In this document: positions 1,707 to 48,743 of the stretch, in pieces
How positions within the stretch are numbered: position 1 is the stretch's first letter
Layout: each line of letters starts with the position of its first letter
Source of the DNA: an uncultured Alphaproteobacteria bacterium
GTDB taxonomy: Bacteria > Pseudomonadota > Alphaproteobacteria > Rs-D84
Assembly (NCBI GenBank): GCA_944389135.1
Contig: CALXLG010000003.1
Coordinates: 51,488-115,487, forward strand
Length of the DNA stretch: 64,000 nucleotides
Direction: 5' to 3'
Notes under the pieces: model-generated
The model's database searches: none
What the model was told of the DNA's origin: nothing
What the model saw: only the letters and a program-made list of their open reading frames with translations
Program-made: the position numbers and the translations under genes

Positions 1707-2714
1707 TTATCTGACATTCATTTTACCGTTTTTTATACGCATCATCATAATTGCCGAATCCTTTTTATTTTTTAACTTTTTATCCCCAAGTGATTGATTT
1801 TCTATCAAAAACTCGTCACAATCTGTTGGCGCACCTTGTAAAGTTTTTAGTTTATTATTTCTACAATCGTATTTTTTTGCTTTCTTTGGACCGCCAACTA
1901 AACTTTCCAATTTATTGATTGAACAATCAAATTCTTCTACTTCTGTTGGGGAACCTTCTAAACTTTCTATATTAGTATGGCTACACTTATATCTTTTTGC
2001 CTTCTTAGGACCACCAACTAAACTTTCTAATTGATTGACCGAACAATCAAATTCTTCTACTTCTGTTGGGGAACCTTCTAAACTTTCTAAAAAATTCCAA
2101 CTACAATCATATATTTTTGCTTTATTTGGTCCGCCTTTCAAGCTTTCCAAATTATTGAAGAAACAATCAAAATTTTCTACTTCTTTTGGTGCACCTTCTA
2201 AACTTTCTAAAGTATTCCAACCGCAATCATATATTTTTGCCTTATTTGGTCCACCAACTAAACTTTCCAACCAGTTATCATTACAATAAAATTCTTCTAC
2301 AACTTCAGGTGCGCCATTTAATGTTTCTAAAACATTCCGACTACAATTATATCTTTTTGCTTTATTTGGGCCACCTTTCAAACTTTCCAATTTATTGTTA
2401 GAACAATCAAAAGTACCAGAAACTTCTTTTGGGGCCCCCTTTAAAGATTTCAAGTTATTATTACTACAATTAAAATTACCTAAACAAACAACTTTCGATA
2501 AATCTGGTAATTTTTTTAAGCCTAAATTAGATATATCTATATTTCCTTTTATTACAAAGGTTTCGTGTGTGTCTAATTCTCTTAAATCATACCACTTATA
2601 ATCTTGAAAAAACATATACTGATTTTCTCTTATTGCTTTGTTACTTGTACCCCAACGAACAAGCTTTGAAAATAAATTAATACATTTACCTTGAAAATTT
2701 TTATCAGATGACAT
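1707..2714 (-). CDS. Leucine-rich-repeat protein, paralog 1 (11 tandem 20-residue repeats)
   Basis: 335-aa ORF. The repeats follow xNxLESLxG(A/G)PxxxxxFxCx with an exact 20-aa period and alternate between two subtypes (GAPKEVxxFDC and GGPxKAKxYDC). The N-terminal 48 aa are identical to paralog 2. Confidence 0.8.
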   Translation of the reverse strand: MSSDKNFQGKCINLFSKLVRWGTSNKAIRENQYMFFQDYKWYDLRELDTHETFVIKGNIDISNLGLKKLPDLSKVVCLGNFNCSNNNLKSLKGAPKEVSGTFDCSNNKLESLKGGPNKAKRYNCSRNVLETLNGAPEVVEEFYCNDNWLESLVGGPNKAKIYDCGWNTLESLEGAPKEVENFDCFFNNLESLKGGPNKAKIYDCSWNFLESLEGSPTEVEEFDCSVNQLESLVGGPKKAKRYKCSHTNIESLEGSPTEVEEFDCSINKLESLVGGPKKAKKYDCRNNKLKTLQGAPTDCDEFLIENQSLGDKKLKNKKDSAIMMMRIKNGKMNVR

Positions 2715-2773
2715 ATTAAAAACCTTTTTATTTATATGTTAATCACATAATAGACAAAAACATGTTAATGTCA

Positions 2774-2796
2774 ATAAAAAATCGCCTTGCGGCGAC
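2774..2796 (-). terminator. Rho-independent terminator downstream of LRR gene 2
   Basis: The minus strand reads TCGCC-GCAA-GGCGA followed by a T-run. The same hairpin recurs at about 3868, 4033 and 4406. Confidence 0.7.
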
Positions 2797-2807
2797 TTTC
2801 TTTATTT

Positions 2808-3800
2808 TTATCTGACATTCATTTTACCGTTTTTTATCCAAGTCTTCACAACAAAACTTTCTATTTCATCAAGGAACGATATATCTACACAAAACTCGTC
2901 ACAATCTTTTGGGGCACCTTGTAAAGTTTTTAGTTCATTATTTCTACAATCGTATTTTTTTGCTTTCTCAGGACCGCCAACTAAACTTTTCAATACGTTA
3001 TTTTCGCAATTAAATTCTATTACTTTTTTTGGGGCACCTTGTAAAGTTTTTAGTTTATTATTGTAGCAATCGTATATTGCTGCTGTCTTAGGTCCGCAAA
3101 CTAAACTTTCCAATACGTTATTTTTACAATTAAAGTTTATTACTTCTTGGGGGGCACCTTGTAAAGTTTTTAGTTTATTATTGCAGCAATTGTATAATTC
3201 TGCTTTCTTTGGTCCACCAATTAAACTTTCCAATTTATTAGAAGCACAATAAAATTCTTTCACTTCTTTGGGGGCACCTTGTAAAGTTTTTAGTTTATTA
3301 TCGCAGCAATTGTATAATCCTGCTTTCTTTGGTCCGTCAATTAAACTTGTCAATTTATTATTACTACAATCAAATTTTTCTACATCTTCTGGGGCACCCT
3401 GCAAAGTTTCTAAATAATTATAACTACAATCATATATTTTTGCTGTCTTAGGTCCGCCAATCAAACTTTCAGCTCTATTGAAAGAACAATTAAAAGTACC
3501 TAATACCTTTTTTGGCGCACCTTTTAAATTTAGCAGTTGATTATAACTGCAATCAAAGTCCCCCAAACAAACAACATTTGATAAATTTGGTAATTCTTGT
3601 AAACTTAAATTAGATATATTTATATCTACTTTTATTACAAAGGTTCCATATAATACATCTAATTCCCTTAAATCATACCACTTATAATCTTGAAAAAACA
3701 TATACTGATTTTCTCTTATTGCTTTGTTACTTGTACCCCAACGAACAAGCTTTGAAAATAAATTAATACATTTACCTTGAAAATTTTTATCAGATGACAT
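2808..3800 (-). CDS. Leucine-rich-repeat protein, paralog 2 (about 12 tandem 20-residue repeats)
   Basis: 330-aa ORF. It has the same N-terminus (MSSDKNFQGKCINLFSKLVRWGTSNKAIRENQYMFFQDYKWYDLRELD) and C-terminal IKNGKMNVR as paralog 1. The central LRR array is diverged. Confidence 0.8.
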   Translation of the reverse strand: MSSDKNFQGKCINLFSKLVRWGTSNKAIRENQYMFFQDYKWYDLRELDVLYGTFVIKVDINISNLSLQELPNLSNVVCLGDFDCSYNQLLNLKGAPKKVLGTFNCSFNRAESLIGGPKTAKIYDCSYNYLETLQGAPEDVEKFDCSNNKLTSLIDGPKKAGLYNCCDNKLKTLQGAPKEVKEFYCASNKLESLIGGPKKAELYNCCNNKLKTLQGAPQEVINFNCKNNVLESLVCGPKTAAIYDCYNNKLKTLQGAPKKVIEFNCENNVLKSLVGGPEKAKKYDCRNNELKTLQGAPKDCDEFCVDISFLDEIESFVVKTWIKNGKMNVR

Positions 3801-3894
3801 ATTAAAAACCTTTTTATTTATATGTTATATCACATAATAGACAAAAATGCATTAATGTCAATAAAAAAATCGCCTTGCGGCGACTTTCTTTATT

Positions 3895-4640
3895 CTGGGG
3901 CGGATGACCGGATTACTTCGTCACCTTGTAAAATTGTGCTATGCACAAGCGGCGTACTCTCGTCCGCCTTTTTACTGCGGTTCGAACGGCTTCTTCGCCG
4001 GTTCTCATCCTATCCTTTCGCAGAATAAAAAAAATCGCCTTGCGGCGACTTTCTTTATTCTGGGGCGGATGACCGGGACACCTGCGCCCAGCAATTTTAT
4101 TGCCGGGCTTCGTATTGTTCGCTTATCGCACCTAACGGTGCTGCTCACCACTCGTTCGCGTTCGACTTCCCTTCGGTCGTCTTACTGACTCGTATGCGAA
4201 CCTCGGTTCGAACCCGACCCGTCCAAAGTTATAAAAAATACCGGCATAACGCCGGCATTTTTTATAACTGGGGCGGATGACCGGATTACTTCGTCACCTT
4301 GTAAAATTGTGCTATGCACAAGCGGCGTACTCTCGTCCGCCTTTTTACTGCGGTTCGAACGGCTTCTTCGCCGGTTCTCATCCTATCCTTTCGCAGAATA
4401 AAAAAAATCGCCTTGCGGCGACTTTCTTTATTCTGGGGCGGATGACCGGGACACCTGCGCCCAGCAATTTTATTGCCGGGCTTCGTATTGTTCGCTTATC
4501 GCACCTAACGGTGCTGCTCACCACTCGTTCGCGTTCGACTTCCCTTCGGTCGTCTTACTGACTCGTATGCGAACCTCGGTTCGAACCCGACCCGTCCAAA
4601 GTTATAAAAAATACCGGCATAACGCCGGCATTTTTTATAA
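3895..4640 (-). repeat. Two apparently identical 373-bp tandem units abutting tRNA-His, each with two modules that end in a copy of the tRNA-His 3' end plus a terminator
   Basis: ctggggcggatgaccgg occurs at 3895, 4060, 4268, 4433 and, in the real gene, at 4641. The identical ORF-track translations at 3904-4188 and 4277-4561 confirm the 373-bp period. Confidence 0.9.
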
Positions 4641-4641
4641 C

Positions 4642-4719
4642 TGGGGCGGATGACCGGATTCGAACCGGCGACATTTGGTACCACAAACCAACGCTCTAAC
4701 CAGCTGAGCTACATCCGCC
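4642..4719 (-). tRNA. tRNA-His (anticodon GTG) with encoded G-1 and CCA
   Basis: The minus strand reads G-GCGGATG-TA-GCTC-AGCTGGTTA-GAGC-G-TTGGT-TTGTGGT-ACCAA-ATGTC-GCCGG-TTCGAAT-CCGGT-CATCCGC-C-CCA, a full cloverleaf with a G-1:C73 pair. Confidence 0.93.
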
Positions 4720-4734
4720 ATACTCAATTCTTCT

Positions 4735-4810
4735 TGGTGGAGCTGATCAGACTCGAACTGACGACCCCTTGCATGCCATGCAAGTGCTCTACCAACTGAG
4801 CTACAACCCC
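4735..4810 (-). tRNA. tRNA-Ala (anticodon GGC)
   Basis: The minus strand reads GGGGTTG-TA-GCTC-AGTTGGTA-GAGC-A-CTTGC-ATGGCAT-GCAAG-GGGTC-GTCAG-TTCGAGT-CTGAT-CAGCTCC-A-CCA. A G3:U70 pair is present. Confidence 0.93.
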
Positions 4811-4891
4811 CTTGCGTTGCATTATTCTATATTTCTTCTTGCCAAATGTCAAATCAATTTGCTAATCTTTTTACACATAAGGAGATTTACC

Positions 4892-5452
4892 ATGGATTAT
4901 CAATCTTTAAAGGCTGAAGTAGAACAAAAAACCTTGCAAACAATTGACGTTCTGAAAAATGAATATGCCGGTCTGCGTACTGGTCGTGCTTCTATTCATC
5001 TGCTGGATGGTGTTAAAGTTCCAGTTTATGGCGCCGATATGCCAATTAATCAAGTTGCAACTGTCGCAACACCAGATAACCAAACCCTGACTGTTACTGT
5101 TTGGGATATTAATAATGCAGGCGCCGTTGAAAAAGCTATTCGTGATTCAGGGCTGGGCTTAAACCCAATGACTGCGGGCGGTGTAATTCGCTTAAATATG
5201 CCTCCGCTTACAGAAGAACGCCGTAAAGAATTGGTAAAAGTTTCTGGAAAGTATGCAGAAGAAGCTAAAATTTCTATGCGTAACATACGCCAAGACGCGA
5301 TGAGCAAAATTAAACGCGCCGTAACTGATAAAGAAATTTCCGAAGATGACCAGCGTAAATTTGAAGACGATTTACAAAAAGTCTTTGATAAACGCGGGGT
5401 TGAAGTTGACGCACTCGCAAAACAAAAAGAAGCAGACATTATGTCCGTGTAA
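4892..5452 (+). CDS. frr: Ribosome recycling factor
   Basis: The ATG at 4892 follows the RBS aaggag. The 186-aa product has RRF-like sequence (LRTGRAS..., ...PPLTEERRKELVK...). The longer ORF in the track overlaps the tRNA and is not used. Confidence 0.9.
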   Translation: MDYQSLKAEVEQKTLQTIDVLKNEYAGLRTGRASIHLLDGVKVPVYGADMPINQVATVATPDNQTLTVTVWDINNAGAVEKAIRDSGLGLNPMTAGGVIRLNMPPLTEERRKELVKVSGKYAEEAKISMRNIRQDAMSKIKRAVTDKEISEDDQRKFEDDLQKVFDKRGVEVDALAKQKEADIMSV

Positions 5453-15607: not shown

Positions 15608-16114
15608 TTATGCGGAATACCCATAAACAGACCAATTAACAAATATTTGATTAGTGTTTCCTCCTATATTTCTTACCCCCAATTCTACACTAGAAATACT
15701 TCTTGGACCAGAATTTCCCATTAGTCTTGTATACGAACTGTTACTAAATGGTGTTACTTGAACAGAATAATTTGTATTCAACATATTTAAGCTAAATACG
15801 GCGGTTAAATTCTTTGCGACGCCATCTGCTAAGTTTCCAAAACTTATTGTCCCCCCCTGCTCTACCCAGCCGCTTTTGTACTTGCGGTACCAACTGCTGC
15901 CGTCAGCCGCACGCCAAGTCTCTATAACATAATCTGCTGTATTTATGTCTGATGGTATATCGCTCTTCTTCGCTAATATTGTACCCCCTACTGTCTCGCC
16001 ATCATGAACACGTAACGTTTTGTTCGTCGTGTCCATCGTTATTTCTCCAATCACTCCTGTAAATTCTTCGTGCTCAACAGCACTGCCACGACGTATTTGT
16101 ATCTGTCTGGACAT
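15608..16114 (-). CDS. Phage tail-fibre-like protein (receptor-binding tip)
   Basis: The N-terminus IQIRRGSAVEHEEFTGVIGEITMDTTNKTLRVHDGETVGG matches the common fibre/Mtd-type N-terminal motif. The C-terminal SWYRKYKSGWVEQGG... resembles Gp53-like fibre tips. Confidence 0.7.
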   Translation of the reverse strand: MSRQIQIRRGSAVEHEEFTGVIGEITMDTTNKTLRVHDGETVGGTILAKKSDIPSDINTADYVIETWRAADGSSWYRKYKSGWVEQGGTISFGNLADGVAKNLTAVFSLNMLNTNYSVQVTPFSNSSYTRLMGNSGPRSISSVELGVRNIGGNTNQIFVNWSVYGYSA

Positions 16115-16173
16115 TTTTACTCCTTATATATATACGATACGTTTTCTGATTGTTTGAATTGAATTTCCTTGTT

Positions 16174-16527
16174 ATGATTAACACTATGAATTCTTATAAC
16201 ATCGGTGTTTTTTCAGAACTAATTGCATGTGCTTATTTAATTCTACACGGGTTTCGTATAGTGAAAAGACGATATATTACGGGACGTCTTACTAATCGCG
16301 CAGAAATTGATATCATCGCAAAGAAAAAAGACCTTTTAATATTCGTCGAAGTTAAAAGACGTTCCAATACAACAGAAGCTTTTAATGCTATAACCAGTGC
16401 ACAGATAAAAAGACTTCGCACCGCAGCAGAAACTTATATTTTACAAAAAAATTGGCGTGGCAACGCCAGATTTGATGCGATAATCATAACGCCTAAAAAA
16501 CTTCAATGGATTAAGGGCGCTATATAA
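16174..16527 (+). CDS. yraN: YraN-family (UPF0102) endonuclease-like protein
   Basis: EIDIIAKKKDLLIFVEVKRR and ...ARFDAIII... form the PD-(D/E)xK-like pattern typical of YraN. Confidence 0.75.
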   Translation: MINTMNSYNIGVFSELIACAYLILHGFRIVKRRYITGRLTNRAEIDIIAKKKDLLIFVEVKRRSNTTEAFNAITSAQIKRLRTAAETYILQKNWRGNARFDAIIITPKKLQWIKGAI

Positions 16528-16588
16528 GCTTGCATATAATTTCGTTTTTTTATAATATATAAATACACCGATTAAAAAGGAGATATGT

Positions 16589-16738
16589 ATGAAAAAAATT
16601 ATGTTGGCTTTGTTTGCTGTTTTAACATTGGCTGCTTGCACAGGTTCATATAAGCAAGGTAATTGTGAATATGATTTCTTGTTACATAAAGATATTTCTA
16701 TTTCTAAAATTATCGGCAACGCAACAGGTGGTTGCTAA
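16589..16738 (+). CDS. Small lipoprotein (49 aa)
   Basis: This ORF is not in the track. It has the RBS aaaggag and a lipobox (LTLAAC), and a bidirectional terminator follows at 16744-16776. Confidence 0.5.
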   Translation: MKKIMLALFAVLTLAACTGSYKQGNCEYDFLLHKDISISKIIGNATGGC

Positions 16739-16772
16739 AGAACAAAAAAATCCCGCAAAATGCGGGATTTTT

Positions 16773-17033
16773 TTATTTTATTACCGCTGTCTTAATTAAT
16801 GATACATCGTCTTTGATACCGTCAATTTTTATCTGTAATTGCCCAATACCCGTTTCTAAAATTGTTGTCCTGTTTTCCAGCGTTGTAATTCTATGATCTG
16901 CACGTTCTAATTCCGCCAGTGATGAATCTTGACGTGCAACCCAATATATCATGCCAGCGACAAAGGCGATTAAGAACCAACTATCTCTTAAGAAGTCAAT
17001 AATTCCCATCGCTCCGTTTTGAGTTTGCATCAC
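16773..17033 (-). CDS. Membrane-anchored coiled-coil protein (phage cluster)
   Basis: 86 aa with one TM helix (WFLIAFVAGMIYWV) followed by a heptad-rich tail. It overlaps the upstream ORF by 4 nt. Confidence 0.5.
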   Translation of the reverse strand: MMQTQNGAMGIIDFLRDSWFLIAFVAGMIYWVARQDSSLAELERADHRITTLENRTTILETGIGQLQIKIDGIKDDVSLIKTAVIK

Positions 17034-17221
17034 TTTCCCCGCTGTATCAGAGTTTCAATCTGATGTACAAGAGCTCTTTGTGCTTCTAGACCACGCAATT
17101 CTGAATCACTGGCGTTGGGTCCCAGAACACGCTCTATTGTTATACGCCGCAAATGCGCCAATACTGCTGCACCAGCAGCAGTTGAAAATGTACGCGCATA
17201 ATTTTGTTCAACTTCTTTCAT
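17030..17221 (-). CDS. Small phage-associated protein
   Basis: 63 aa, located immediately downstream of the portal gene. The function was not recognised with certainty. Confidence 0.45.
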   Translation of the reverse strand: MKEVEQNYARTFSTAAGAAVLAHLRRITIERVLGPNASDSELRGLEAQRALVHQIETLIQRGK

Positions 17222-17236
17222 ATCTTTCCCCTTTGC

Positions 17237-18460
17237 TTACAAAACTGTTTCTTCTATGGCCATTTGCGCTATTGGTGCGATATACTTTAATTCCGCATCA
17301 CTATGCAAAGATATTTTTTCTATCACCCCACGACGAGATAAAATCTGTAACCCACGTTCACACAAAGGTCTGATAAATTCATGCAACAGTCTGCCGTATG
17401 TTGCACCAAGTATTCTTACCATATCTGCATTACGTGCCATGATTTCAGTTGCGGTCATTTCTTTTTCAGACAACAAACCAAGTCTATCCGCCAGCAACGC
17501 ATGACGAATACGTTCACGCAAGTCTTTCAATATAATTTGTGATACATCAAAGTCTGCGCCAGAAGATAACGGGGTTAAGCCCGAACTACCTACCGCCTTT
17601 GGTATTATTGCCCCAGGTGTTAAATTAATGTTTGATAAGTTTATAACACCGTCATCATCTGCCTGCCATATACCAGAAACAGCGATTGTTGCGTTTTTTA
17701 ATACTAGTTCTACAACTTTATTTGCGGTCTTGATATCTGGCAAAGCACGCAATACTGGGCCACGTCCGTATAGTTCACCACTGGCAACCGACCAACGAAA
17801 AACTAAGTAAGGGTTCGTTTCAAAAGTACCAGTAGAAATAATATTGTTTTCAATATTTCCACCGACATCCAACCACGCAGTAAAATCTTTACCAACCAAG
17901 CTTTGTACTAATTTCAAAGGCATTTCTGGGTCTTTCTTTATTGCATCACGAATATCTGCAGGTGGTGTCCAAGAAGGATATTTCTCAATAACTTCACGCG
18001 CGGGCATTGAAGTAGTATGAAATATCGCATTCGGTAAAATTGCAATATCTTTCATCGGAATTGCGGTAAAAGAAAATGCGGAATCTGCCCCGATTGGATT
18101 TTCTGACATAAACAGACACGCCGTCCCCAGAATTACTAAATCTAAATAACATTGGTGTATGGTTGTATAGAAATTAGAATCGTTAAGGTTTGCACGTAAT
18201 GCCGCAGTTGCAGAAACAGCATCAGGCGAATCCTCACTTTCAGGTATCAAAGATATCCATAAAGATTCTGGTGGCGTCAACAAAGAATACATTGATGCGG
18301 CTAAATTATCTACGGCATCTGCAGCGGTCGCATCAAACAAAGTTGCGGCATCATCGTCTGCCGTTGGCATGGTATAACGCAATGCACTGTCCCACCTATT
18401 TAACCAAGGTGCACGTAAATCCAGCGCACGACGGTACATTTGTTGTAAATTATTTTGCAT
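17237..18460 (-). CDS. Phage portal (head-to-tail connector)-like protein
   Basis: 407 aa, directly downstream of the terminase nuclease half. Its size, its position and the N-terminal MYRRALDLRAPWLNRWDSALRYTMP resemble podovirus connector proteins. Confidence 0.6.
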   Translation of the reverse strand: MQNNLQQMYRRALDLRAPWLNRWDSALRYTMPTADDDAATLFDATAADAVDNLAASMYSLLTPPESLWISLIPESEDSPDAVSATAALRANLNDSNFYTTIHQCYLDLVILGTACLFMSENPIGADSAFSFTAIPMKDIAILPNAIFHTTSMPAREVIEKYPSWTPPADIRDAIKKDPEMPLKLVQSLVGKDFTAWLDVGGNIENNIISTGTFETNPYLVFRWSVASGELYGRGPVLRALPDIKTANKVVELVLKNATIAVSGIWQADDDGVINLSNINLTPGAIIPKAVGSSGLTPLSSGADFDVSQIILKDLRERIRHALLADRLGLLSEKEMTATEIMARNADMVRILGATYGRLLHEFIRPLCERGLQILSRRGVIEKISLHSDAELKYIAPIAQMAIEETVL

Positions 18461-18481
18461 ATAGTTTGCTCCTTTATTAAG

Positions 18482-19330
18482 TTATAACTTAAAGTCTGTA
18501 TTCGCTGTAAACGGCCTTATTCCTTGTCCTAATGGCCGCACAGGAATTGGGGTTGTTGCGATGGCACCTGCAACTGCATCTAAACCATCGTCATGACCTG
18601 TTGCGCCAACAGGTGACCAACCCAACATTTCTGATAACAGTGGCGTTGATTGAACACGCCGATGCGCATATAATCGCCCCGTTGTCAAAATAGGTTCTAT
18701 TGTTTCTAAAATTCGGGTTTCTTTTTTTGTGTGATTTAATATTTTTTGAATCTGTACTTGAATACCCCGCTGCTGCGTGATTGTACGCATAATTTCTGGC
18801 AACGCATTACCCATACCATTTGTTTCTATACAAATACGATGTAATAAATGTTTTGATAAGAAATCTAAAACCATCTCGCATTGTCTTGCCAGGGGGTGTG
18901 CTTCTTCGTCTGATACCAACAAGTACTTAACATCATGTATGAAAAAACGTTTGTTTTTATCGTCACGATAAATTAATACGCAAACACTGCCGTCAGCTTT
19001 CTTGCGCCCAGAAGATGGGTCCCAATAGGCTGTAACCCCTGTTATTAAAGCGTCTCCTATTTTAGATGTACGAAAATCAAAATCATTGTCATATAAATGT
19101 AAAGAATCGGGGTCTAAGCGGGCTCTGTCTGGAGCAACGAAATTTAACATCATTTGTGCAGAAAAGTATCTATCGCCAACAGTTGCCCGTAATTCTTCTA
19201 TTTTTTCAATTGGAAAAAGTTCCGGCCAAGCTGGTGCACCGTCTGAATCAATAATTGGTATACGTAATTCTTCATAACCGATTAAAAAAGGCGTTGAAAA
19301 AGCAAAATTTTTATATACTATATCTGACAT
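18482..19330 (-). CDS. Terminase large subunit, C-terminal nuclease half only
   Basis: The product starts MSDIVYKNF. It contains AYWDPSSG, ETNGMGNALPE and GHDDGLDAVAGA, the RNase-H-like terminase nuclease acidic motifs. It has no ATPase motifs. Confidence 0.8.
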   Translation of the reverse strand: MSDIVYKNFAFSTPFLIGYEELRIPIIDSDGAPAWPELFPIEKIEELRATVGDRYFSAQMMLNFVAPDRARLDPDSLHLYDNDFDFRTSKIGDALITGVTAYWDPSSGRKKADGSVCVLIYRDDKNKRFFIHDVKYLLVSDEEAHPLARQCEMVLDFLSKHLLHRICIETNGMGNALPEIMRTITQQRGIQVQIQKILNHTKKETRILETIEPILTTGRLYAHRRVQSTPLLSEMLGWSPVGATGHDDGLDAVAGAIATTPIPVRPLGQGIRPFTANTDFKL

Positions 19331-20882
19331 GGACTTTACTCCCAAAACTTTGCCAACGAACCTAGAAGCAGAACAAGCTGTATTGGCTGCAGTTCTAATG
19401 AACAATCGTGCGTTGGAAAAAGTTTCTGAATTTCTGCGTCCTGAACACTTCTCTCACCCAGCACACCAAGAAATCTATAAGCTTGCTGAAAAGCAATTTT
19501 CTGCCGGAATACCATTTGATATAATTACCGCTAAAAATTACCTTGACCAGCAAGGTGTTTTAGAATCCGTTGGTGGCGTAGATTATTTAACTCAGTTATC
19601 CAGCGCAGGTGCAACAGTTGTTAACGTTGAACAGTATGGACGCATTGTTTATGATAACGCTTTACGTCGTGATTTAATAAATTTAGGTCAATCAATTACT
19701 GATGCTGCATTTATTGAAGATTTAGACAATCCTGTTTCTGCACAAATAGAAACAGCGGAACAAAAATTGTTTGAAATGGCGTCAGCAGGAGTTTCTGAAA
19801 AAGAGGTTTCTTCTATTGCCACAGCTCTGCAAAGCGCACTACAAGAAGCTGAAATTGCCTATAAAGCCGACGGAAAGTTATCTGGTCTTACGACTGGTTT
19901 AACTGCACTTGATAAATCTATTAGTGGTTTGCATCATTCTGACTTAATCATCATTGCAGGTCGTCCAGCAATGGGAAAAACAACACTGGCAATGAATATC
20001 GCTTTTAACGCAGCAAATGCTATTTTATACGGGCGCGCAAACGAAAAGTATAAAGGTGCAGTAGCGTTTTTCAGTCTTGAAATGTCCGCATCTCAGTTAG
20101 CTGCCCGTGTATTGTCTTCACAATCTAAGGTTCCTGCCTCTGCCATGCGTGAAGGAACTTTGACGGATGAAGATTTTCTAAAAATGTCGCAATACTCCGC
20201 AGCTATTGGCAGAGTGCCATTGTATATTGACGATACCCCAGGTATGTCTGTACCAATGATACGAACACGCGCCAGAAGATTGGCTAGGAAATGCGGTGGT
20301 ATCGCTCTTATAGTGATTGACTATTTACAGCTGATGACATCACCTGGTGGCAAGCGAAATGATAACCGCGTTCAAGAAATATCCGAAATTACACGTGGTT
20401 TAAAAATGCTGGCCAAAGAATTAGATGTACCTGTAATAGCCTTGTCCCAGTTATCTCGTAGTGTAGAATCACGCGATGACAAACGACCACAACTGGCCGA
20501 CCTTCGTGAATCTGGTTCTATTGAACAAGACGCAGATATTGTTATGTTTACATACCGCGAAGAATACTATCTTGAGAATCGCGACCCGTCACAAAGAATT
20601 TCTGGTAATGCAAACGAAAAAATCATTGAAAGCTATCAAAAACGTTTGGAACGTGCACGTGGCAAGGCCGATGTTATTATCGGTAAAAACCGACACGGCA
20701 GACCAGAAACTGTTCACTTGGCATTCTTTGGCGATTATAGCTTGTTTGATAACTTGGACGAAATGGAAGGACGCACTGCAGATGAATTCTCAGGTAATAC
20801 AATGCCAACCACCTCTTTACCAACAGATGAAATTCCAGAAGCAATTGACCCTGACGCAATTCCAGACGATATGCCTTTGTAA
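19329..20882 (+). CDS. dnaB: Replicative DNA helicase DnaB
   Basis: Contains NLEAEQAVLAAVLMNN, the Walker A motif GRPAMGKTTLA, IDYLQLM and an acidic C-tail. Its ATG overlaps the opposite-strand TerL-C ATG in the palindrome CATG. Confidence 0.9.
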   Translation: MDFTPKTLPTNLEAEQAVLAAVLMNNRALEKVSEFLRPEHFSHPAHQEIYKLAEKQFSAGIPFDIITAKNYLDQQGVLESVGGVDYLTQLSSAGATVVNVEQYGRIVYDNALRRDLINLGQSITDAAFIEDLDNPVSAQIETAEQKLFEMASAGVSEKEVSSIATALQSALQEAEIAYKADGKLSGLTTGLTALDKSISGLHHSDLIIIAGRPAMGKTTLAMNIAFNAANAILYGRANEKYKGAVAFFSLEMSASQLAARVLSSQSKVPASAMREGTLTDEDFLKMSQYSAAIGRVPLYIDDTPGMSVPMIRTRARRLARKCGGIALIVIDYLQLMTSPGGKRNDNRVQEISEITRGLKMLAKELDVPVIALSQLSRSVESRDDKRPQLADLRESGSIEQDADIVMFTYREEYYLENRDPSQRISGNANEKIIESYQKRLERARGKADVIIGKNRHGRPETVHLAFFGDYSLFDNLDEMEGRTADEFSGNTMPTTSLPTDEIPEAIDPDAIPDDMPL

Positions 20883-20949
20883 TATTTTGTGCTTGCTAAA
20901 CTCCTAAAAATTGACTAATATTTTGTCAAGTAATTCAAGGAGATTTGCG

Positions 20950-21954
20950 ATGGCCCAAGAAGAAATAATTTTTCCTAATAACATCAGAAACATTCGTCTT
21001 GCCAATGGTATGAAAATGACTGAATTGGCGCGTCAGGCAAATTTATCTTTGTCTGCTGTTTCAAAAATTGAAAAAGGCGTACGTCGCTTAAATCAAAAGC
21101 AACTATTAAACATCTGTAATATTTTGGGTTGCAAATTATCCGATATCTTTATAAAAGAATCAGATGCTGTTGCAACACAATGGCAAGATGAAATCAAACG
21201 CCGTATGAGCGACAATGAAAACAATGGCTTAAAAATATTTGGCAGTGGGTTACGCAAAATACGTCAGCAAGCAGGTAAAACTATCGCCCAGGCGGCAAAA
21301 GAAGCCGGTATGACATTGTCCGTTTATCATAAAATTGAGGTCGGACAACGTGAAATTTACCAAGATGAAATTGAACCTTTGGCAAAATCATTTGCTTATA
21401 CAACATCTGAATTATTTGATAAAGTTGCAAATCTTTATAAATCTGGCGAACTTAATAAGCAAATTAATAAGGTTAAAGAGCGCGTAAAATCTGTACTAGT
21501 TCCGGACAACCCTTTATCTGGTATTGATCACAGCAGTTTATACGGTGCAAAGCTTTATGATAGCGCCAGAAAAAAATTAGTACCTGTATTTGGCATGCCA
21601 GAAGGTAAAGCCATAGCATTTAAGAAATCTGATGAAACAATGATTGTTGCACCAATGATGCTAGAAGGCAAAAAAGGTATTTATGCTGTAATACCGAACT
21701 CAAAACGTACTAACGGTTTTATTCCTGAAAAAGCGTATGTTTTTGCTGATTCGTGTGCGACTGTAAATACTGGTGATTTAGCAATCTGTATTGATGCAGA
21801 TTTTGATACTTTGGGCACAGAAGATAAAGCAACAGCTCAAATTGTTAGCGTTCGCCAAGATTCTAAGGGTAAAACATACGGTCAAATTTCTTCTCCGGAA
21901 GAAAAAATTATCGGCAAAACATTACACAAAGTTGTAATGATTGTTATGGAATAA
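20950..21954 (+). CDS. Transcriptional regulator with two XRE-type HTH domains and a CI/LexA-like C-terminal domain (no obvious catalytic Ser-Lys)
   Basis: Two segments of the type IRNIRLANGMKMTELARQANLSLSAVSKIEKG and LRKIRQQAGKTIAQAAKEAGMTLSVYHKIEVG are present. The RBS is aaggag. Confidence 0.7.
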   Translation: MAQEEIIFPNNIRNIRLANGMKMTELARQANLSLSAVSKIEKGVRRLNQKQLLNICNILGCKLSDIFIKESDAVATQWQDEIKRRMSDNENNGLKIFGSGLRKIRQQAGKTIAQAAKEAGMTLSVYHKIEVGQREIYQDEIEPLAKSFAYTTSELFDKVANLYKSGELNKQINKVKERVKSVLVPDNPLSGIDHSSLYGAKLYDSARKKLVPVFGMPEGKAIAFKKSDETMIVAPMMLEGKKGIYAVIPNSKRTNGFIPEKAYVFADSCATVNTGDLAICIDADFDTLGTEDKATAQIVSVRQDSKGKTYGQISSPEEKIIGKTLHKVVMIVME

Positions 21955-21981
21955 TAATTCATATTGCCTAGGGGGGACAAC

Positions 21982-22647
21982 ATGAAAGCGAAAGCCAGTT
22001 TAATTGCACAAAAACTTCTTAACTTATATCGTCAAGAGCATGTAATTTTTGGTGGTTGGGCCGCTGTTAATGAAGTATTCGTAAATGAAGCAACCCCTGA
22101 GGTAATAACCGAATTGCGCGAATTGCCAACAGGAAAATTATTAGCAAAACATATAGAAAATCTTCGCAGTGGCAAAACACCTATGAATTCTATTGAACGC
22201 GACCTACTTCCTTATGGTGGTATGATGGCAGAAACAATTGCAACAATTCCGTTAACGACAGAAGAATGGGCGGAATTAGAACAAGGCATACATAATTTCA
22301 CCCCTGATGAAAACGGTCTAAACGAAATACAACAGTTAAATGTTATCAAAAAGTTTGGCGATCAGTGGTTAGTTGCAATACGTGCAGCAATATCGGCAAA
22401 ACCAGAATTATTGGAAAAATGGTCAGTCATTGCAAAAACATACCGCGCATACTATTTATGGAAAGTGGCAAGCGATATGATTAACCAACCACTTACGGAA
22501 CGCGCACGTGCTCAATTACAAGCAGATATGCCAGAATATGAAACATACCTGCCTATGTTTGGCGAAGCGGGCGTAGAATTGTTAGAAAAATTACGTTCTT
22601 TCATAACCACAATGAAATCGGACAAAGAAGAAAATATTTCTGACTAA
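21982..22647 (+). CDS. Hypothetical protein
   Basis: 221 aa with the RBS gggggg and no recognised motif. It is the last gene of the insert that splits the terminase. Confidence 0.5.
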   Translation: MKAKASLIAQKLLNLYRQEHVIFGGWAAVNEVFVNEATPEVITELRELPTGKLLAKHIENLRSGKTPMNSIERDLLPYGGMMAETIATIPLTTEEWAELEQGIHNFTPDENGLNEIQQLNVIKKFGDQWLVAIRAAISAKPELLEKWSVIAKTYRAYYLWKVASDMINQPLTERARAQLQADMPEYETYLPMFGEAGVELLEKLRSFITTMKSDKEENISD

Positions 22648-23261
22648 CTTTCTGATTTAGTTCTATAAATAGTATCCATCGTATGTGGTGTGCCAATATA
22701 TATCATTGTGCCGGTGGGTGAAAGAATAAAATCAAGCTCTCGTAATTTCTCTCGTAATGTTTCTCGCTTTTGTGCGGTGTTGCAAGTATTTGGGACTTCG
22801 ACGTCATCGCATATAATCAAGTCTGCTCGCATACCTGTAATATTTCCATGAACTCCTTGGCATATTACAGATGGTTCGCGAATTCCAACAGGTCGGTTAA
22901 CAGTTATGCGTCCTTGGGCCCATTCTTTTTTCGCGCTTGGAATTAGCTCTTTACACAGCGGATGATTTTCTAGAATATGCCGAATATGTGCAACCATTCT
23001 AGAAGCCAGCCCGCTTTCAGCAGACAAAATTAAAATTCTTGTTTCTGGATGCAAATATAAAACACATGCAGCGAATATTCCAACCACTGTAGACTTACCT
23101 GAATGTCGGAAAGACATTAACAAACCGCGCTTATTTTTGCCTGTCCATATTGAAACAAGAAAATCCATAATTTTTTTATGATGCGTGGGAGTTTTAAATC
23201 CAAGAATCTCGTTCCAATCATCTAAGAAATTATAGAACTCCGTAATCATCACGTGTTTCAT
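22644..23261 (-). CDS. Terminase large subunit, N-terminal ATPase half only
   Basis: It has Walker A (SFRHSGKST) and Walker B (DLIICDDVE) motifs and the coupling motif IGTP. It stops right after ...MDTIYRTKSES. Confidence 0.8.
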   Translation of the reverse strand: MKHVMITEFYNFLDDWNEILGFKTPTHHKKIMDFLVSIWTGKNKRGLLMSFRHSGKSTVVGIFAACVLYLHPETRILILSAESGLASRMVAHIRHILENHPLCKELIPSAKKEWAQGRITVNRPVGIREPSVICQGVHGNITGMRADLIICDDVEVPNTCNTAQKRETLREKLRELDFILSPTGTMIYIGTPHTMDTIYRTKSES

Positions 23262-23778
23262 TTGGCGCCTGCTCTGTTATGCTGCCATAATCATTTATTA
23301 AATTTGGCAAAGCATTATCTAATACCGATAATAAGTTATTATAAAGCCCTAAAACACTGCCACCAGATAATTTATCTTCTATTAGCTTGACCGTATAATC
23401 TATAAAAGATAATACTTTATCATGTACGTTTGCCCACTCTGAAACATTTATATCTATGTTTTGCAGGTCTTTAAAAGCCTCTAATAAAAAATTAAAATCG
23501 GCGTTTAGTGCTTCGGGGTCTATCTTTGCGGTTGGTTGATAATCAACAACACGCGACAAAGCAATTTGTCTAAAAATATCCACTTTTGTGTTTTCTGCTG
23601 GTGGATTTATAAAAATAACTGTTCCACCAGAAAAATCTTCGTTCGCAACAATGGAACATTCGCCGTTCAAACAAAGCTTATCATCTAGCGCAACACGAAT
23701 GTCTGCTTCTTGAAAAAAAGGAAACGCAAATAAGAACTCTGACGTTACCCCATCAGCAATATAAGAGTTTCTGTACAT
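23230..23778 (-). CDS. T7-type tail-fibre N-terminal (tail-attachment) domain protein
   Basis: The N-terminal YIADGVTSEFLFAFPFFQEADIRVALDD matches the pattern of the podovirus fibre N-terminal domain. At 182 aa it has no long shaft. Confidence 0.6.
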   Translation of the reverse strand: MYRNSYIADGVTSEFLFAFPFFQEADIRVALDDKLCLNGECSIVANEDFSGGTVIFINPPAENTKVDIFRQIALSRVVDYQPTAKIDPEALNADFNFLLEAFKDLQNIDINVSEWANVHDKVLSFIDYTVKLIEDKLSGGSVLGLYNNLLSVLDNALPNLINDYGSITEQAPNETRDDYGVL

Positions 23779-23791
23779 TCCTGCCCCCTTA

Positions 23792-24139
23792 TTAACCGAC
23801 TAAATCATCAAATTTATCCAACAAAGACTGTAATAAGTTTGGTTTTTGTACTTTTATCTTCTTTAACTTTTCAGTTTTAGTACGCTTTTTTTCTTCGTAT
23901 GGTTCGGCCGCTTCTTCTTTTAATCGCTTTAGGACTGCCCCTTCGGTCATGCCTTTACCTGACATACCAGACGCACCATATTTAGCACGTTGCGTGGCTA
24001 ATGTTTTTTTTACTAAATTTGTTTTTTCTTTTTCATCAGCTGCCATATCAGACAGTATCTTCTGTCTTTCTGTTTCGGCTTCTTTTTTTGAATCTTTATA
24101 ATTTAAAATATCTGTTACATCTGAAACTATCTGCCCCAT
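23792..24139 (-). CDS. Lys/Glu-rich small virion-associated-like protein
   Basis: 115 aa, highly charged, located between the tubular-B-like and fibre-N genes. Confidence 0.4.
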   Translation of the reverse strand: MGQIVSDVTDILNYKDSKKEAETERQKILSDMAADEKEKTNLVKKTLATQRAKYGASGMSGKGMTEGAVLKRLKEEAAEPYEEKKRTKTEKLKKIKVQKPNLLQSLLDKFDDLVG

Positions 24140-24155
24140 TTTTTTCTCCCTATGT

Positions 24156-25871: not shown

Positions 25872-25887
25872 ACCGACTACCCCCAGA

Positions 25888-26406
25888 TTAAAAACGCGCG
25901 TTGATTAAAGAAAAACTTTCTATGTCTTGATTGATTGACGTTGTACTGTCTATAAATTTCGCAGATTGCATTTCTGTTTCATATAAAGCGGCAAGCATTC
26001 TAAATACACTTTGCTCGCCAATAAGTGGTATACAAAATTCCATTGCTAACTTAGTCGCAGCCAGTGAAACAAAATAACTAGGGAAGTTTTCAACAGGAAC
26101 CTTTGTTATCGCCAAAATAGAAATCTTTTCTTCTGCAGAAATAATTTTATTTCCGATAATTTCCCCATTGCATTTCAAAACACGCAAACAATCAATTGGT
26201 ATTAAAAAGTCTCCGTCCGATGTTTTTGTAAGCTCATATTTTTTACATGCAAAGCGCCACGGATGCGAAGACAGCAAGGTATCTATTACTGGGTCAAACA
26301 AAGTCCTACTAAGTTGCGCAGCCGGTGTATCATCTACAAGAGACTGAATAGATTTCTCGCCCAGCTTTAATAACGCCATAGAACATAAATCTATTTTCGT
26401 AATCAT
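25888..26406 (-). CDS. Tail tubular protein A / adaptor-like protein
   Basis: The N-terminus IDLCSMALLKLGEKSIQSLVDDTPAAQLSRTLFDPVIDTLLSSHPWRFA follows the N-terminal pattern I associate with podovirus gp11-like adaptors. Confidence 0.55.
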   Translation of the reverse strand: MITKIDLCSMALLKLGEKSIQSLVDDTPAAQLSRTLFDPVIDTLLSSHPWRFACKKYELTKTSDGDFLIPIDCLRVLKCNGEIIGNKIISAEEKISILAITKVPVENFPSYFVSLAATKLAMEFCIPLIGEQSVFRMLAALYETEMQSAKFIDSTTSINQDIESFSLINARF

Positions 26407-26462
26407 ATTATGCCCCTTATTGCTAAAAATAAAGGCGACATAAAAATGTCGCCTTGGTTTTA

Positions 26463-26690
26463 TTATGCTAAATCAGCAACACTAACATTGCCAGAAACAG
26501 CAACTTTTTTAATAGAAGTATTATCAGACGCATTTATGATTACGATATCACCTGTATTCATTAACGTCTTTACACCATCAAAATAACCAGCCGTTGTAAT
26601 CGCTGTTAACGTTTCGTTTGCAGAATAATGCCACAAAGTAAAACCATTGGCATATGCAATAACAGATAAATTTTTATTCTGAAAAGCCAT
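26463..26690 (-). CDS. Small phage structural-cluster protein
   Basis: 75 aa, directly downstream of the capsid gene, which makes a decoration or cement role possible. Confidence 0.4.
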   Translation of the reverse strand: MAFQNKNLSVIAYANGFTLWHYSANETLTAITTAGYFDGVKTLMNTGDIVIINASDNTSIKKVAVSGNVSVADLA

Positions 26691-26723
26691 TATATAATCC
26701 TTTTATTTCGGTTTTAATTTGTT

Positions 26724-27545: not shown

Positions 27546-27788
27546 ATATTATTCCTTTTTATAATCAAGTGAATTTAATGCGTATAAATAACGCGGCTAA
27601 AATTTTGTATCATGGTTATGCGCTTTAACGCGCCAATATACAAAATACCAAGGTCCTAAAAAGGATTGTCTTGAGAAATTCTTAGTCATACTAAACAAAA
27701 ACATATGACTAAAAATTTCAAAAAATAAAACCGCATAAAAATGCGGCTGTATAGAAAAAGTAAATCCCCGCAATTGCGAGGATTTATA

Positions 27789-28082: not shown

Positions 28083-28185
28083 TCTTCTCTCCTTTTTATT
28101 TTTTGGATAGAACAAATTTGTTTTGTTCTTACTTTATATTTTATATGAAACAAAAATATTAGTAAAGAAGAAAGTGCATTTTTTT

Positions 28186-43009: not shown

Positions 43010-43087
43010 GGGGTTGTAGCTCAGCTGGTTTAGAGCGTCTGCCTGTCACGCAGAAGGTCGCGGGTTCGAGCCCCGTCAATCCCGCCA
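43010..43087 (+). tRNA. tRNA-Asp (anticodon GTC)
   Basis: The sequence is GGGGTTG-TA-GCTC...TCTGC-CTGTCAC-GCAGA-AGGTC-GCGGG-TTCGAGC-CCCGT-CAATCCC-G-CCA. Confidence 0.9.
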
Positions 43088-43261
43088 GCAATTTCGCACC
43101 GCATGGTGCGTTTTTTATTGACGGGGCGAAGAACCCGTGCGGGTTCGTGTGCGGAGTTGGCGAAAGCGCGCCCCGGCGCGGTTAAGCCTTACCGAGCCGA
43201 AAGGGGCCCGCCATGCCACCAAGGCATGGTGGGAATTTACAACCCCGTCAATCCCGCCAGC
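43071..43261 (+). repeat. 19-bp direct repeat of the tRNA-Asp 3' end flanking a terminator plus a GC-rich ~125-nt module
   Basis: ccccgtcaatcccgccagc occurs at 43071-43089 and 43243-43261. The module starts TTGACGGGG, which is complementary to the CCCCGTCAA of the repeat, and contains GCGGGTTCG, identical to the 5' half of the T-arm. Confidence 0.85.
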
Positions 43262-48269: not shown

Positions 48270-48354
<85 letters not shown>

Positions 48355-48634
48355 TTGTTTAAACTTTATTGCTGGCTCACATCCAGCGCGTCTACCAATT
48401 TGTTCGCTTTTCGCAACTGTCGTTGCTGCTCACCACTCGTTAGCGCTCGGCTTCGCTTTCGCTTGTCTTGCTTACTCGTATGCGCCATATGCCCTTGTTT
48501 AAACTTTATTGCTGGCTCATATCCAGCGCGTCTACCAATTTGTTCGCTTTTCGCAACTGTCGTTGCTGCTCACCACTCGTTAGCGCTCGGCTTCGCTTTC
48601 GCTTGCCTTGCTTACTCGTATGCGCCATATGCCT
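48355..48634 (-). repeat. Two 140-bp tandem units upstream of tRNA-Leu, each holding nt 1-12 and 13-33 of the tRNA separated by an 81-nt GC-rich core
   Basis: gccatatgccc ends at 48354, 48494 and 48633. atccagcgcgtctaccaattt starts at 48322, 48381 and 48521. The cores lie at 48402-48482 and 48542-48622. Confidence 0.9.
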
Positions 48635-48743
48635 AATAAAAAGCGCATTTAACATAAGCGAACTTAATCTTATTATAAAATTTACTTGATTTCCAGTAAA
48701 ATTTAACATAAAATTTGTCGCAGAATAATAAAAGGTTAATAAA

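Follow-up and report, generated by a model that had tools for sequence, protein, structure and literature searches.

A tandem array of probable RtT-type tRNA-operon repeat modules behind the tRNA-His gene of an uncultured alphaproteobacterium

The analysis covered a stretch of 64,000 nucleotides (64 kb; hereafter the window) from an uncultured alphaproteobacterium, in which the minus strand carries a short tRNA operon followed by an array of repeated DNA. A sigma-70-like promoter (TTGACA-17-TAGAAT; 4824..4852), the sole promoter-like site upstream of the array on this strand in the promoter scan, precedes tRNA-Ala(GGC), the first gene of the operon (4735..4810), and tRNA-His(GTG) (4642..4718), in which G-1, C73 and CCA are encoded; both genes were identified by ARAGORN and Rfam. 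Behind tRNA-His, the same strand holds a hairpin/terminator with 19-nt arms and a T run (T1; 4600..4640), a proximal module A of 164 nt (4434..4597), a hairpin/terminator of a second type (T2; 4393..4432), and a proximal module B of 120 nt (4269..4388). According to TRF and the repeat families, the succession is then repeated as a second T1 hairpin (4227..4267), a distal module A (4061..4224), a second T2 hairpin (4020..4059) and a distal module B (3896..4015), the distal modules being the same in sequence as their proximal counterparts. A T2-type hairpin (3861..3894) ends the array, and the promoter of LRR gene 2 is next (3834-3861).

The 17-mer CCGGTCATCCGCCCCAG, read on the minus strand, occurs at 3895, 4060, 4268, 4433 and 4641, the last copy being the 3' end of tRNA-His, whereas none is expected from 100 shuffles. 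A preliminary description had reported the gene copy and four further copies, together with a perfect tandem array of 373-bp units holding two different modules of about 165 and about 130 nt. The count agrees, and TRF returned a period of 373 over 3895-4660 with 2.05 copies (2.1 by TRF), 100% matches and no indels; the two module types are also present, at the 164 and 120 nt given above. The exact twofold copy number is taken as assembled and may be a product of the assembly.

The repeated tail is derived from nt 58-76 of tRNA-His plus a G, and its identity to the tRNA extends over 20 nt in the B tails and 17 nt in the A tails. The leader of module A is an inverted, diverged repeat of the tRNA-His T-arm and acceptor 3' strand; it is followed by the string GAACCGAGGTTCG, an A-type core in the order CATACGAGT-hairpin-AACGAGTGGTGAGC-hairpin-GCGAAC, an extra hairpin and the tail. 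Module B consists of the leader GGATGA, complementary to its own tail, followed by GAGAACCGG, a folded body, GACGAAGTAAT and the tail; the complementarity of GGATGAgaaCCGG and CCGGTCATCC and the T-arm-like strings described earlier were found on reading the sequence. The G+C content of modules A and B is about 50-55%; the adjacent LRR genes have about 30%, and the rest of the neighborhood about 35-45%. Both modules fold more stably than their shuffled versions (z = -2.9 for module A and z = -3.6 for module B).

A G+C hairpin and a T run stand behind every tail, in both orientations, in agreement with the earlier view that each module end has its own terminator. The accompanying statement that module B is followed by the T1 type holds for the internal copy (4227-4267) and fails for the last one (3896), behind which T2 is found (3861-3894), and the sharing of T2 between module A and LRR gene 2 is borne out by a T2-like hairpin behind that gene at 2775-2806. 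The promoter/terminator scan detected no promoter-like site within the His array; since each unit has a good intrinsic terminator and there is no internal promoter, expression of the distal His units may be low. Protein coding was also considered and rejected: the 94-aa ORFs on the plus strand (3904-4188 and 4277-4561) are antisense and cross both modules and terminators, and module lengths vary by 1 nt across species (164/165, 151/152), so the modules encode no conserved protein.

Within the 64-kb window, such elements were found at three tRNA genes only. The second is tRNA-Asp(GTC) (43010..43087, plus strand; ARAGORN), which together with its terminator is followed by a type C module (43117..43259, plus strand; fold z = -4.0). 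The leader of this module, ATTGACGGGG, is the exact complement of its tail CCCCGTCAAT and is followed by GAAGAACCCGTGCGGGTTCG; the tail equals the 3' end of tRNA-Asp over 16-18 nt, a second terminator comes next, and the core also occurs in tRNA-His modules of other species. The third gene, tRNA-Leu(TAG) (48270..48354, minus strand; ARAGORN), carries its elements on the 5' side, as two tandem 140-bp units (48355..48634, minus strand) that are partial tRNA-Leu copies with an A-type core. Each unit comprises nt 1-12 of the tRNA, the core, nt 13-43 with an altered anticodon loop, and 16 nt of the native upstream flank, and the cores (48402-48482 and 48542-48622) lie in the D-loop of the partial copies at GGCG^AAAT. 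A promoter-like site (TTTACT-17-TATAAT; 48672..48700, minus strand; promoter scan) lies upstream of this array, and neither a promoter-like nor a terminator-like site was seen between the array and tRNA-Leu. As the A-type core copies thus lie between the sole promoter-like site and tRNA-Leu with no intervening terminator, the gene layout suggests that the units would be transcribed together with tRNA-Leu. A 5' array was also found at tRNA-Ser, and both the Leu and the Ser arrays copy the 5' half of the tRNA. We know of no described E. coli counterpart of these 5'-side arrays.

The 3'-side modules are tripartite: the 3' third of the tRNA appears first, as an inverted copy bearing a GAGAAC motif, a folded, variable core comes next, and nt 58-76 are then repeated in direct orientation. 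The helix formed by leader and tail is genuine, its sequence following the identity of the tRNA. In His type B, GCGGATGA pairs with TCATCCGC; in His type C, GGGCGG and CGGAC pair with GTCCG and CCGCCC; at tRNA-Asp, ATTGACGGGG pairs with CCCCGTCAAT; at tRNA-Tyr of E. coli, GGGGAAGGA pairs with TCCTTCCCC, and the tRNA-Gln element (locus L311) obeys the same rule. The B copy of the window is without two outer acceptor pairs found in other species, its helix being cut to 6 + 4 bp, and in another multi-copy array, from an independent assembly (L028), the distal B tails are decayed with their bodies intact. Therefore, the tRNA-like end is not always maintained.

Many Candidatus Enterousia species have types A and B behind tRNA-His, at 75-97% identity, with a number and order that vary by species (A only, B only, A-B, B-A, 4 x B). 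In Enterousia, the elements were found at tRNA genes only and at the same locus in many species. The module interiors are conserved above the adjacent essential genes, since module A bodies are 94-97% identical, as against 79-83% for frr DNA and 81-86% for rne DNA. The changes that do occur tend to preserve pairing: in type A, both sides have changed in 13 of 44 pairs, compared with 6.5 +/- 1.6 in shuffles (none of 500 reaching 13) and 0-5 in controls with slid pairing, and in type B this is the case for 8 pairs, compared with 2.6 +/- 1.2 in shuffles (0/500). The cores are also mosaic, with parts of different types joined in three loci (L036, L030 and L040).

The closest likeness to this anatomy was found in RtT RNA (rttR; RF00391), the product of 178-bp repeats in the tyrT operon of E. 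coli. Known since the tyrT locus was first sequenced, RtT is annotated in thousands of enterobacterial genomes and has so far been treated as an enterobacterial curiosity. It is encoded by the repeat units of the operon and processed from the tyrT transcript, with no established function (PMC3318445, PMC7542023, each citing Bosl and Kersten 1991), and its structure has covariation support and a tandem-GA motif (PMC8250186). Like the modules, RtT comes directly after a tRNA gene and shares its strand, with trailer and module forming tandem units, and its tail copies the last 19 nt of the tRNA (A58-A76), ending in AATCCTTCCCCCACCACCA, where the modules copy 17-20 nt (His) or 16-18 nt (Asp). Its 5' segment is complementary to its tail, as in the modules, and its leader is an inverted tRNA copy with the same change of ATTCGAAC to ATGAGAAC. 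Both have GAGAAC and a GGUUCG element after the closing helix, the AUGAGAAC motif as well as a palindrome derived from the T-stem of their tRNA, a GA-rich 3' part that ends in AAUCC, a length of about 120-165 nt, and covarying hairpins. Unlike RtT, which belongs to tRNA-Tyr, the modules accompany tRNA-His and tRNA-Asp and come from an alphaproteobacterium; their cores differ from that of RtT and are more varied (types A, B and C and mosaics), and each module unit has its own intrinsic terminator.

Model searches gave a weaker signal than this comparison of anatomy. The Rfam RtT model, which has a gathering threshold of 45 bits and scores the E. coli RtT copies at 121-134 bits, had no match at E <= 10 on window positions 3700-4900 or on six related loci, and nhmmer sequence profiles of modules and RtT gave no significant match in either direction. 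A covariance model built from Enterousia type B alone ranked the three annotated RtT copies as its best matches in the E. coli locus, over full length and on the right strand, at marginal E values of 0.12-0.23 in a 90-kb search. Because these matches are marginal, the shared design could be convergent rather than the result of common descent.

Other RNA identities were searched for and set aside. Rfam, both at the gathering threshold and at E <= 10, reported tRNAs only, apart from a sub-threshold match to STnc430 that is driven by the tail plus terminator. The modules resemble tmRNA, YrlA/Y RNA and viral tRNA-like domains in that an acceptor/T-stem-like helix and a 3' CCA close a larger RNA, and they differ from them in having no intact T-loop and often missing outer acceptor pairs; ARAGORN and Rfam gave no tmRNA, YrlA or tRNA match at the modules. 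In particular, no tmRNA, including the two-piece alphaproteobacterial form, was reported by ARAGORN, and the module ends have His or Asp rather than Ala identity. A group I or other tRNA-gene intron was rejected, as tRNA-His is intact and terminated, no Intron_gpI match was obtained, and the exon-side junction base is G, not U. A hammerhead-like core was rejected on reading the sequence, the GUGGUGA...GAA segment having neither the invariant C3 nor A6. A retroviral-type primer-binding site, with the leader as complement of the tRNA 3' end and the tail as nt 58-76, was abandoned as a general explanation, since it is the 5' half of the tRNA that the Leu and Ser arrays copy.

We favor, with confidence somewhat above even, the reading of the array as RtT-type tRNA-operon repeat modules in tandem, not as a series of integration scars; the modules are most likely RtT-type, probably mobile, tRNA-operon RNA modules. 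Each would be a fold-back derivative of the neighboring tRNA gene, ordered on the tRNA strand as terminator hairpin, leader, short T-stem palindrome, core and tail. The leader would represent the inverted T-arm and acceptor 3' strand with its T-loop part changed to GAGAAC, the core a variable, G+C-rich and hairpin-rich insert, and the tail a direct copy of nt 58-76, that is, the end of the T-loop, the T-stem 3' strand, the acceptor 3' strand, the discriminator and CCA. In the RNA, leader and tail are predicted to pair into a minihelix of acceptor/T-stem type that encloses the core. By analogy with E. coli RtT, we infer that the modules are transcribed within the tRNA precursor, which for the His and Asp modules would require terminator read-through and for the tRNA-Leu units would follow from the gene layout, and that they are excised and trimmed by tRNA-processing enzymes recognizing the minihelix and the CCA end. 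The cores may act as modular mobile or recombining units, with G^AA as their exact point of entry into partial tRNA copies, be it in the D-, anticodon- or T-loop. The size of an array would shift by unequal recombination between the repeated tail-plus-terminator segments, which may account for the perfect 2 x 373 bp duplication. The preliminary description had proposed expressed RNAs that mimic a tRNA 3' minihelix, and had called them decoys. Of this proposal, the mimicry is supported by the helix that tracks tRNA identity and by the RtT-like design; the His modules, with no internal promoter and with a terminator behind each unit, are candidates for expression, and "decoy" is a label, not a finding.

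The first reading offered in the same description was serial footprints of a T-arm-targeting integrase, with the LRR genes as possible cargo of the same events. In its ordinary form, this would make the repeats attL/attR remnants of islands or prophages that integrated serially at tRNA-His and lost their interiors, and we consider it improbable. Direct repeats of a tRNA 3' end are the classic mark of integration, known integrative elements supply a new tRNA 3' end plus a terminator, and, as at att sites, the repeats begin in or near the T-loop, form tandem arrays at one tRNA gene and adjoin a hypervariable slot. The slot between rne and tRNA-His indeed differs in cargo among species, with LRR genes here, a 2.2-kb insert encoding an HNH-domain protein in one relative (L012), and lysozyme-like and phage-like genes adjoining the modules in another (L030). 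However, the inserts of these two relatives interrupt modules and are not bounded by them, and nothing ties the LRR genes mechanistically to the modules. Domain searches of the window ORFs of at least 120 aa detected no integrase, resolvase or transposase, nor did those of the variable segment next to tRNA-His in related species, and no integrase was found on a viral contig carrying the att core. A phage attP was likewise rejected from IMG/VR scans with two core 14/15-mers and the 17-mer. The 17-mer matched 3 viral contigs only, all by chance within unrelated G+C-rich coding DNA, and the scans gave one true relative (L133, in host flank) with the rest chance matches; the serine recombinase of L133 is part of a separate prophage on the opposite side of tRNA-Ser. 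Between the repeats lie conserved, structured segments of 120-165 nt, and since these interiors exceed frr and rne DNA in conservation and show compensatory changes, the modules are not decaying scars. Integration also leaves the inverted tRNA-end copy unexplained, as it does the recurrence of the same design with related cores at tRNA-Asp, -Gln and -Val and at E. coli tRNA-Tyr.

A stronger competitor, though still one we judge rather unlikely, treats the modules as MITE-, REP- or PATE-type DNA elements that are mobile but non-autonomous and have no RNA function of their own, moved in trans by some enzyme, perhaps as folded single strands, so that tRNA-like hairpin loops would be safe insertion sites and covariation would reflect a requirement for structure in the DNA. 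Termite-gut metagenome contigs carry the A-type core at about 15 distinct intergenic sites, and in one locus (L324) a complete core breaks the hairpin loop of another exactly at GCG^AAA with no target duplication. Every core junction is G^AA, in the T-loop (His, Asp, Gln, Val, Tyr), the anticodon loop (Ser) or the D-loop (Leu). A dispersed and self-nested core fits a selfish mobile element as well as a functional RNA, the mosaic cores point the same way, and the high likeness of bodies between species relative to coding DNA would equally be given by recent spread. REP/BIME, PATE and MITE repeats share with the modules small size, high G+C, hairpins, mosaic structure, intergenic position, multiple copies in some genomes, nested insertion and compensatory stem changes. 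Against this, neither the window nor the immediate surroundings of any copy yielded a transposase, recombinase or reverse transcriptase, no RAYT/TnpA-type gene was seen, and there are no terminal inverted repeats with target duplication. Known MITE, REP or IS200-type insertion features neither leaders and tails matched to a tRNA nor a linked duplication of a promoter or terminator, and the Enterousia elements are capped with tRNA-derived ends and confined to tRNA genes, at one locus across many species.

Even less probable than the integration remnants are neutral by-products of hairpin-driven replication errors, in which an inverted-then-direct duplication would arise from switches of template at the terminator hairpin and at the T-arm palindrome, the twofold repeat being very recent or an assembly artefact. 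The direct-inverted-direct layout, with junctions at two natural palindromes (terminator and T-arm), the 100% identity of the duplication and the breaking of many short-read MAG contigs near the tRNA-His locus would suit such a process. It does not explain the conserved cores, the covariation, the shared GAGAAC change or the recurrence across phyla, and multi-copy arrays occur in independent assemblies too, e.g., L028.

Returning to RtT-type modules, we suggest tentatively, as a possibility short of an even chance, that the His and Asp modules, the Leu and Ser 5' arrays and E. coli RtT form one undescribed class built on a structured element of about 80-100 nt. This element would insert exactly at G^AA in the D-, anticodon- or T-loop of a tRNA gene copy and in its own hairpin loop, its insertion being coupled to a partial tRNA duplication (on the 3' side, inverted plus direct) that keeps the tRNA intact, and the RNAs so produced would pass through the tRNA-processing machinery and could mimic tRNA ends. 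A literature search for the core sequence and similar arrays returned nothing relevant.

In the present data, the RtT design appears on other tRNAs in a reduced gut alphaproteobacterium, and the variable cores also occupy D- and anticodon-loops in partial copies of tRNAs, while unrelated bacteria carry them as dispersed repeats. Such arrays disrupt short-read assembly and can be mistaken for att sites in genomic-island prediction. If the interpretation is true, RtT would be one member of a widespread modular family tied to tRNA genes, and many natural variants would be available to probe its conserved parts, namely GAGAAC, the GGUGAGC...GCGAAC tandem-GA element and the tRNA-matched helix. The mobility of the element and the identity of its mover would then become testable questions.

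The 17-mer CCGGTCATCCGCCCCAG was found on the minus strand at 3895, 4060, 4268, 4433 and 4641, the last copy being the 3' end of tRNA-His(GTG) (4642-4718, minus strand), which agrees with the gene and four further copies counted in the preliminary description; shuffling gave 0 matches in 100 trials. Tandem Repeats Finder recovered the perfect 2 x 373 bp tandem claimed there (period 373, 2.1 copies, 100% identity, span 3895-4660). Together with tRNA-Ala(GGC) (4735-4810, minus strand), tRNA-His was called by both ARAGORN and Rfam. On the tRNA strand, tRNA-His is followed by T1, the proximal module A (4597-4434), T2, the proximal module B (4388-4269), T1, the distal module A (4224-4061), T2, the distal module B (4015-3896), T2 and the LRR gene promoter, T1 and T2 being two hairpin types. 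A hairpin with a T run stands behind every tail, as had been proposed, and the assignment of T1 to module B holds for the internal copy, whereas the last copy carries a T2-type hairpin instead. The modules have a G+C content of ~50-55%, against ~30% in the adjacent LRR genes and ~35-45% in other nearby sequence, and they fold more stably than shuffles (z = -2.9 and -3.6). Sigma-70-like promoters on the tRNA strand were located only upstream of tRNA-Ala and of LRR gene 2. The LRR-repeat genes at 1707-2714 and 2808-3800 (minus strand), whose LRR units are encoded by internal 60/120-nt repeats, form a tandem duplication (1707-3868) that takes in the promoter region, a T2-like hairpin and a 170-nt stretch of 99% identity.

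The locus was compared across species using 80 loci fetched via the neighbouring frr gene. The window comes from Candidatus Enterousia, a gut alphaproteobacterium whose genome is small. In many of the species compared, tRNA-His is followed downstream by 1-4 additional copies of its tail, and the inter-tail sequences belong to three recurring types (A, B and C) and to mosaics, namely a B body behind an A leader (L036), an A body behind a B leader (L030) and a first half of C joined to a second half of A (L040). Module number and order vary between species: A only, B only, A-B, B-A or four times B. In this last locus (L028, 5098-5590), the four tandem bodies are identical, but divergence is seen in the three distal tails (CCGGGCAGAAGCCCCAG and, after it, CCGGGTAGAAGTTTCAAA). 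Between rne and tRNA-His there are as few as 245 nt (one module) and as many as 3.6 kb. The additional genes in this gap code for surface-repeat proteins, AlgX/MBOAT acyltransferases, an LPG-synthase-like protein and RNase PH, none being a recombinase; different species carry different surface-protein or acyltransferase genes in this slot. A second variable slot may exist between tRNA-Ala and tRNA-His, where the spacer measures 16 nt in the window and 640 nt to 2.4 kb in L003, L015, L021 and L059, the L059 spacer containing a cysteinyl-tRNA-synthetase-like ORF. Directly behind tRNA-Ala, many Enterousia species (L044 5493-5575; L047, L048, L054, L074) have a ~80-nt tRNA-Ala-like element that lacks the D-arm and has a mutated anticodon arm but keeps an intact T-arm, acceptor 3' strand and CCA; in L024 (1-150) it is in tandem up to the contig end.

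All module types share a common plan: terminator hairpin, leader, T-stem palindrome, core and tail. The leader is an inverted copy of the tRNA T-arm and acceptor 3' strand. In L059, L070 and L076 the T-arm of tRNA-His is reproduced without change in reverse complement (ACCGGATTCGAACCGGC); most copies have A(T)GAGAACC in place of ATTCGAACC in the T-loop part. Behind the leader, the T-stem 5' strand and the first part of the T-loop recur in direct orientation (..GGTTCG), forming a short palindrome with it, and behind the variable core follow AAT and the remaining tRNA to CCA (nt 58-76). As predicted from these sequences, the leader pairs with the tail in the RNA and the pairing tracks tRNA identity: GCGGATGA with TCATCCGC in His type B, GGGCGG and CGGAC with GTCCG and CCGCCC in His type C, and ATTGACGGGG with CCCCGTCAAT in the tRNA-Asp module.

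Between species, module bodies resemble one another more closely than do the adjacent essential genes: A is 94-97% identical, compared with 79-83% for frr DNA and 81-86% for rne DNA. Type A (11 sequences) has 44 predicted pairs, of which 13 show two-sided changes that keep the pairing, whereas shuffles gave 6.5 +/- 1.6 such changes (0 of 500 reaching 13) and a control with partners slid by 1-3 columns gave 0-5. This covariation is confined to two hairpins; the leader-tail helix and the GUUCGC/GCGAAC helix are invariant within the type. For type B (14 sequences, structure made by hand), 8 two-sided changes were obtained versus 2.6 +/- 1.2, a value reached in 0 of 500 shuffles. Plus-strand ORFs over the modules were rejected as coding, module lengths varying by single nucleotides between species.

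Among known elements RtT, the RNA of the repeats behind E. coli tRNA-Tyr, comes closest; three annotated copies of it were examined in a tyrT locus. Passages in PMC3318445, PMC7542023 and bioRxiv 10.1101/2024.07.17.603846 describe rttR as encoded in the tyrT operon repeat units, processed from the tyrT transcript and possibly related to the amino-acid starvation response, with no assigned function; in the first two, Bosl and Kersten 1991 is cited for it. Covariation support and a tandem-GA motif have been reported for RtT (PMC8250186). RtT ends in AATCCTTCCCCCACCACCA, that is, nt 58-76 of tRNA-Tyr, just as the modules end in nt 58-76 of their own tRNA, and starts with GGGGAAGGA, the complement of its tail, as the modules start with a leader pairing with theirs. 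Next comes TGAGAAC, an inverted T-loop with the TC-to-GA change also present in the modules, and a palindrome from the tRNA-Tyr T-stem (GAACCTT..AAGGTTC). The GA-rich 3' part ..GAAGGGCGAAGCGCGCAGCGCTGAGTAATCC resembles ..CAAGGTGATGAAGCGCAGCGAAATAATCC of type B, and the Rfam consensus structure is closed by a leader-tail helix, as in the modules. The modules fall outside family RF00391, whose model gave no match to them at E <= 10, and nhmmer profiles of modules and RtT run in both directions gave nothing significant. With a covariance model from type B alone, the three E. coli RtT copies were the best matches in the tyrT locus, aligned over their full length and in the right orientation, though at E values no better than 0.12-0.23 (90-kb search). 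On these results the modules are best regarded as RtT-like by design, with common descent from RtT-type ancestors a possibility.

Two other tRNAs of the window carry related elements. Behind tRNA-Asp (43010-43087) a G+C-rich type C module of 143 nt (43117-43259; region 43088-43300; fold z = -4.0) stands between two terminators; its core matches tRNA-His modules in other Enterousia species and its ends match tRNA-Asp. Upstream of tRNA-Leu(TAG) (48270-48354, minus strand) lie two tandem 140-bp units (region 48355-48700; 98% identity, Tandem Repeats Finder), each composed of tRNA nt 1-12, an A-type core, nt 13-43 and a 16-nt native upstream flank, so that the core sits in the D-loop at GGCG^AAAT. 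Since the sole promoter-like site precedes the array and nothing terminator-like was found between array and gene, the cores must, judging from this layout, be part of the tRNA-Leu precursor, and the arrangement is the best indication in this analysis that cores are transcribed.

A gapped pattern from the A-type core, run against metagenomes, yielded 42 loci. In ~20 of them, a truncated tRNA-Ser(TGA) copy that keeps the 5' part stands directly upstream of the intact gene, and the core interrupts its anticodon loop after G35 (CTTG^AAAA), sometimes in tandem or beside other core types; L133, a viral-collection match of this kind, lies in host DNA flanking a prophage that has a large serine recombinase. 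The complete 3' design occurs behind tRNA-Gln (L311) or tRNA-Val (L303), and further cores lie upstream of tRNA-Ser(CGA) or tRNA-Leu(CAG). Four matches in G+C-rich coding DNA look like chance. About 15 termite-gut contigs have a compact core in unrelated intergenic regions; in L292-L333 it adjoins CCTGCCCCCTTGCGGGGCGGG and GGGGTGGGGG...CCCCCACCCC hairpins. In L324 (1-200), the hairpin loop of one core is split by another complete core exactly at GCG^AAA, and G^AA was observed at all readable junctions.

The suggestion that the array is more than an att scar was supported, and its explanation as serial integrase footprints was not. No integrase, resolvase or transposase domain was detected in window ORFs of at least 120 aa, nor an integrase in the rne/tRNA-His gap of relatives, and the 17-mer is on three viral contigs only, within unrelated coding DNA. 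Larger inserts in relatives interrupt modules instead of being flanked by them: in L012 (3478-5657) a 2.2-kb insert occupies a module A hairpin loop, and in L030 a 1.6-kb lysozyme-like segment splits an A tail and phage-like genes abut a truncated third module. An integration scar is improbable. The L012 insert, which may be defence-type cargo, codes for two proteins. The larger (432 aa) combines predicted membrane segments and a Gly/Ser-rich stretch with a weak HNH domain at its C-terminus; the smaller (208 aa) has no Pfam match. The window itself has T7-like phage structural genes dispersed among cellular genes, dnaB included, between 15.6 and 29 kb (15611-28842). They code for a Mtd_N-domain protein, a portal (head-tail connector), a capsid protein, a capsid assembly (scaffold) protein and a terminase in fragments, which dnaB and an HTH gene separate. 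No integrase is present in the region, and the genes may represent a phage, domesticated or decayed, or else a gene-transfer-agent-like cluster. Directly next to the tRNA-His modules of L030 stands a portal gene of this family.

A purely selfish mobile DNA repeat, the chief rival reading, is a real though rather unlikely alternative. Against an RNA role of the His array in particular speak the terminators that separate the units and the fact that some tails have decayed. The best-supported account, which we favour with some reserve, is that the array consists of structured, tRNA-capped modules of the RtT type. By analogy with RtT, the modules would probably be transcribed with the tRNA operon and processed, while the cores would behave as mobile or recombining units and the size of the array may shift by unequal recombination between the tail-plus-terminator repeats.
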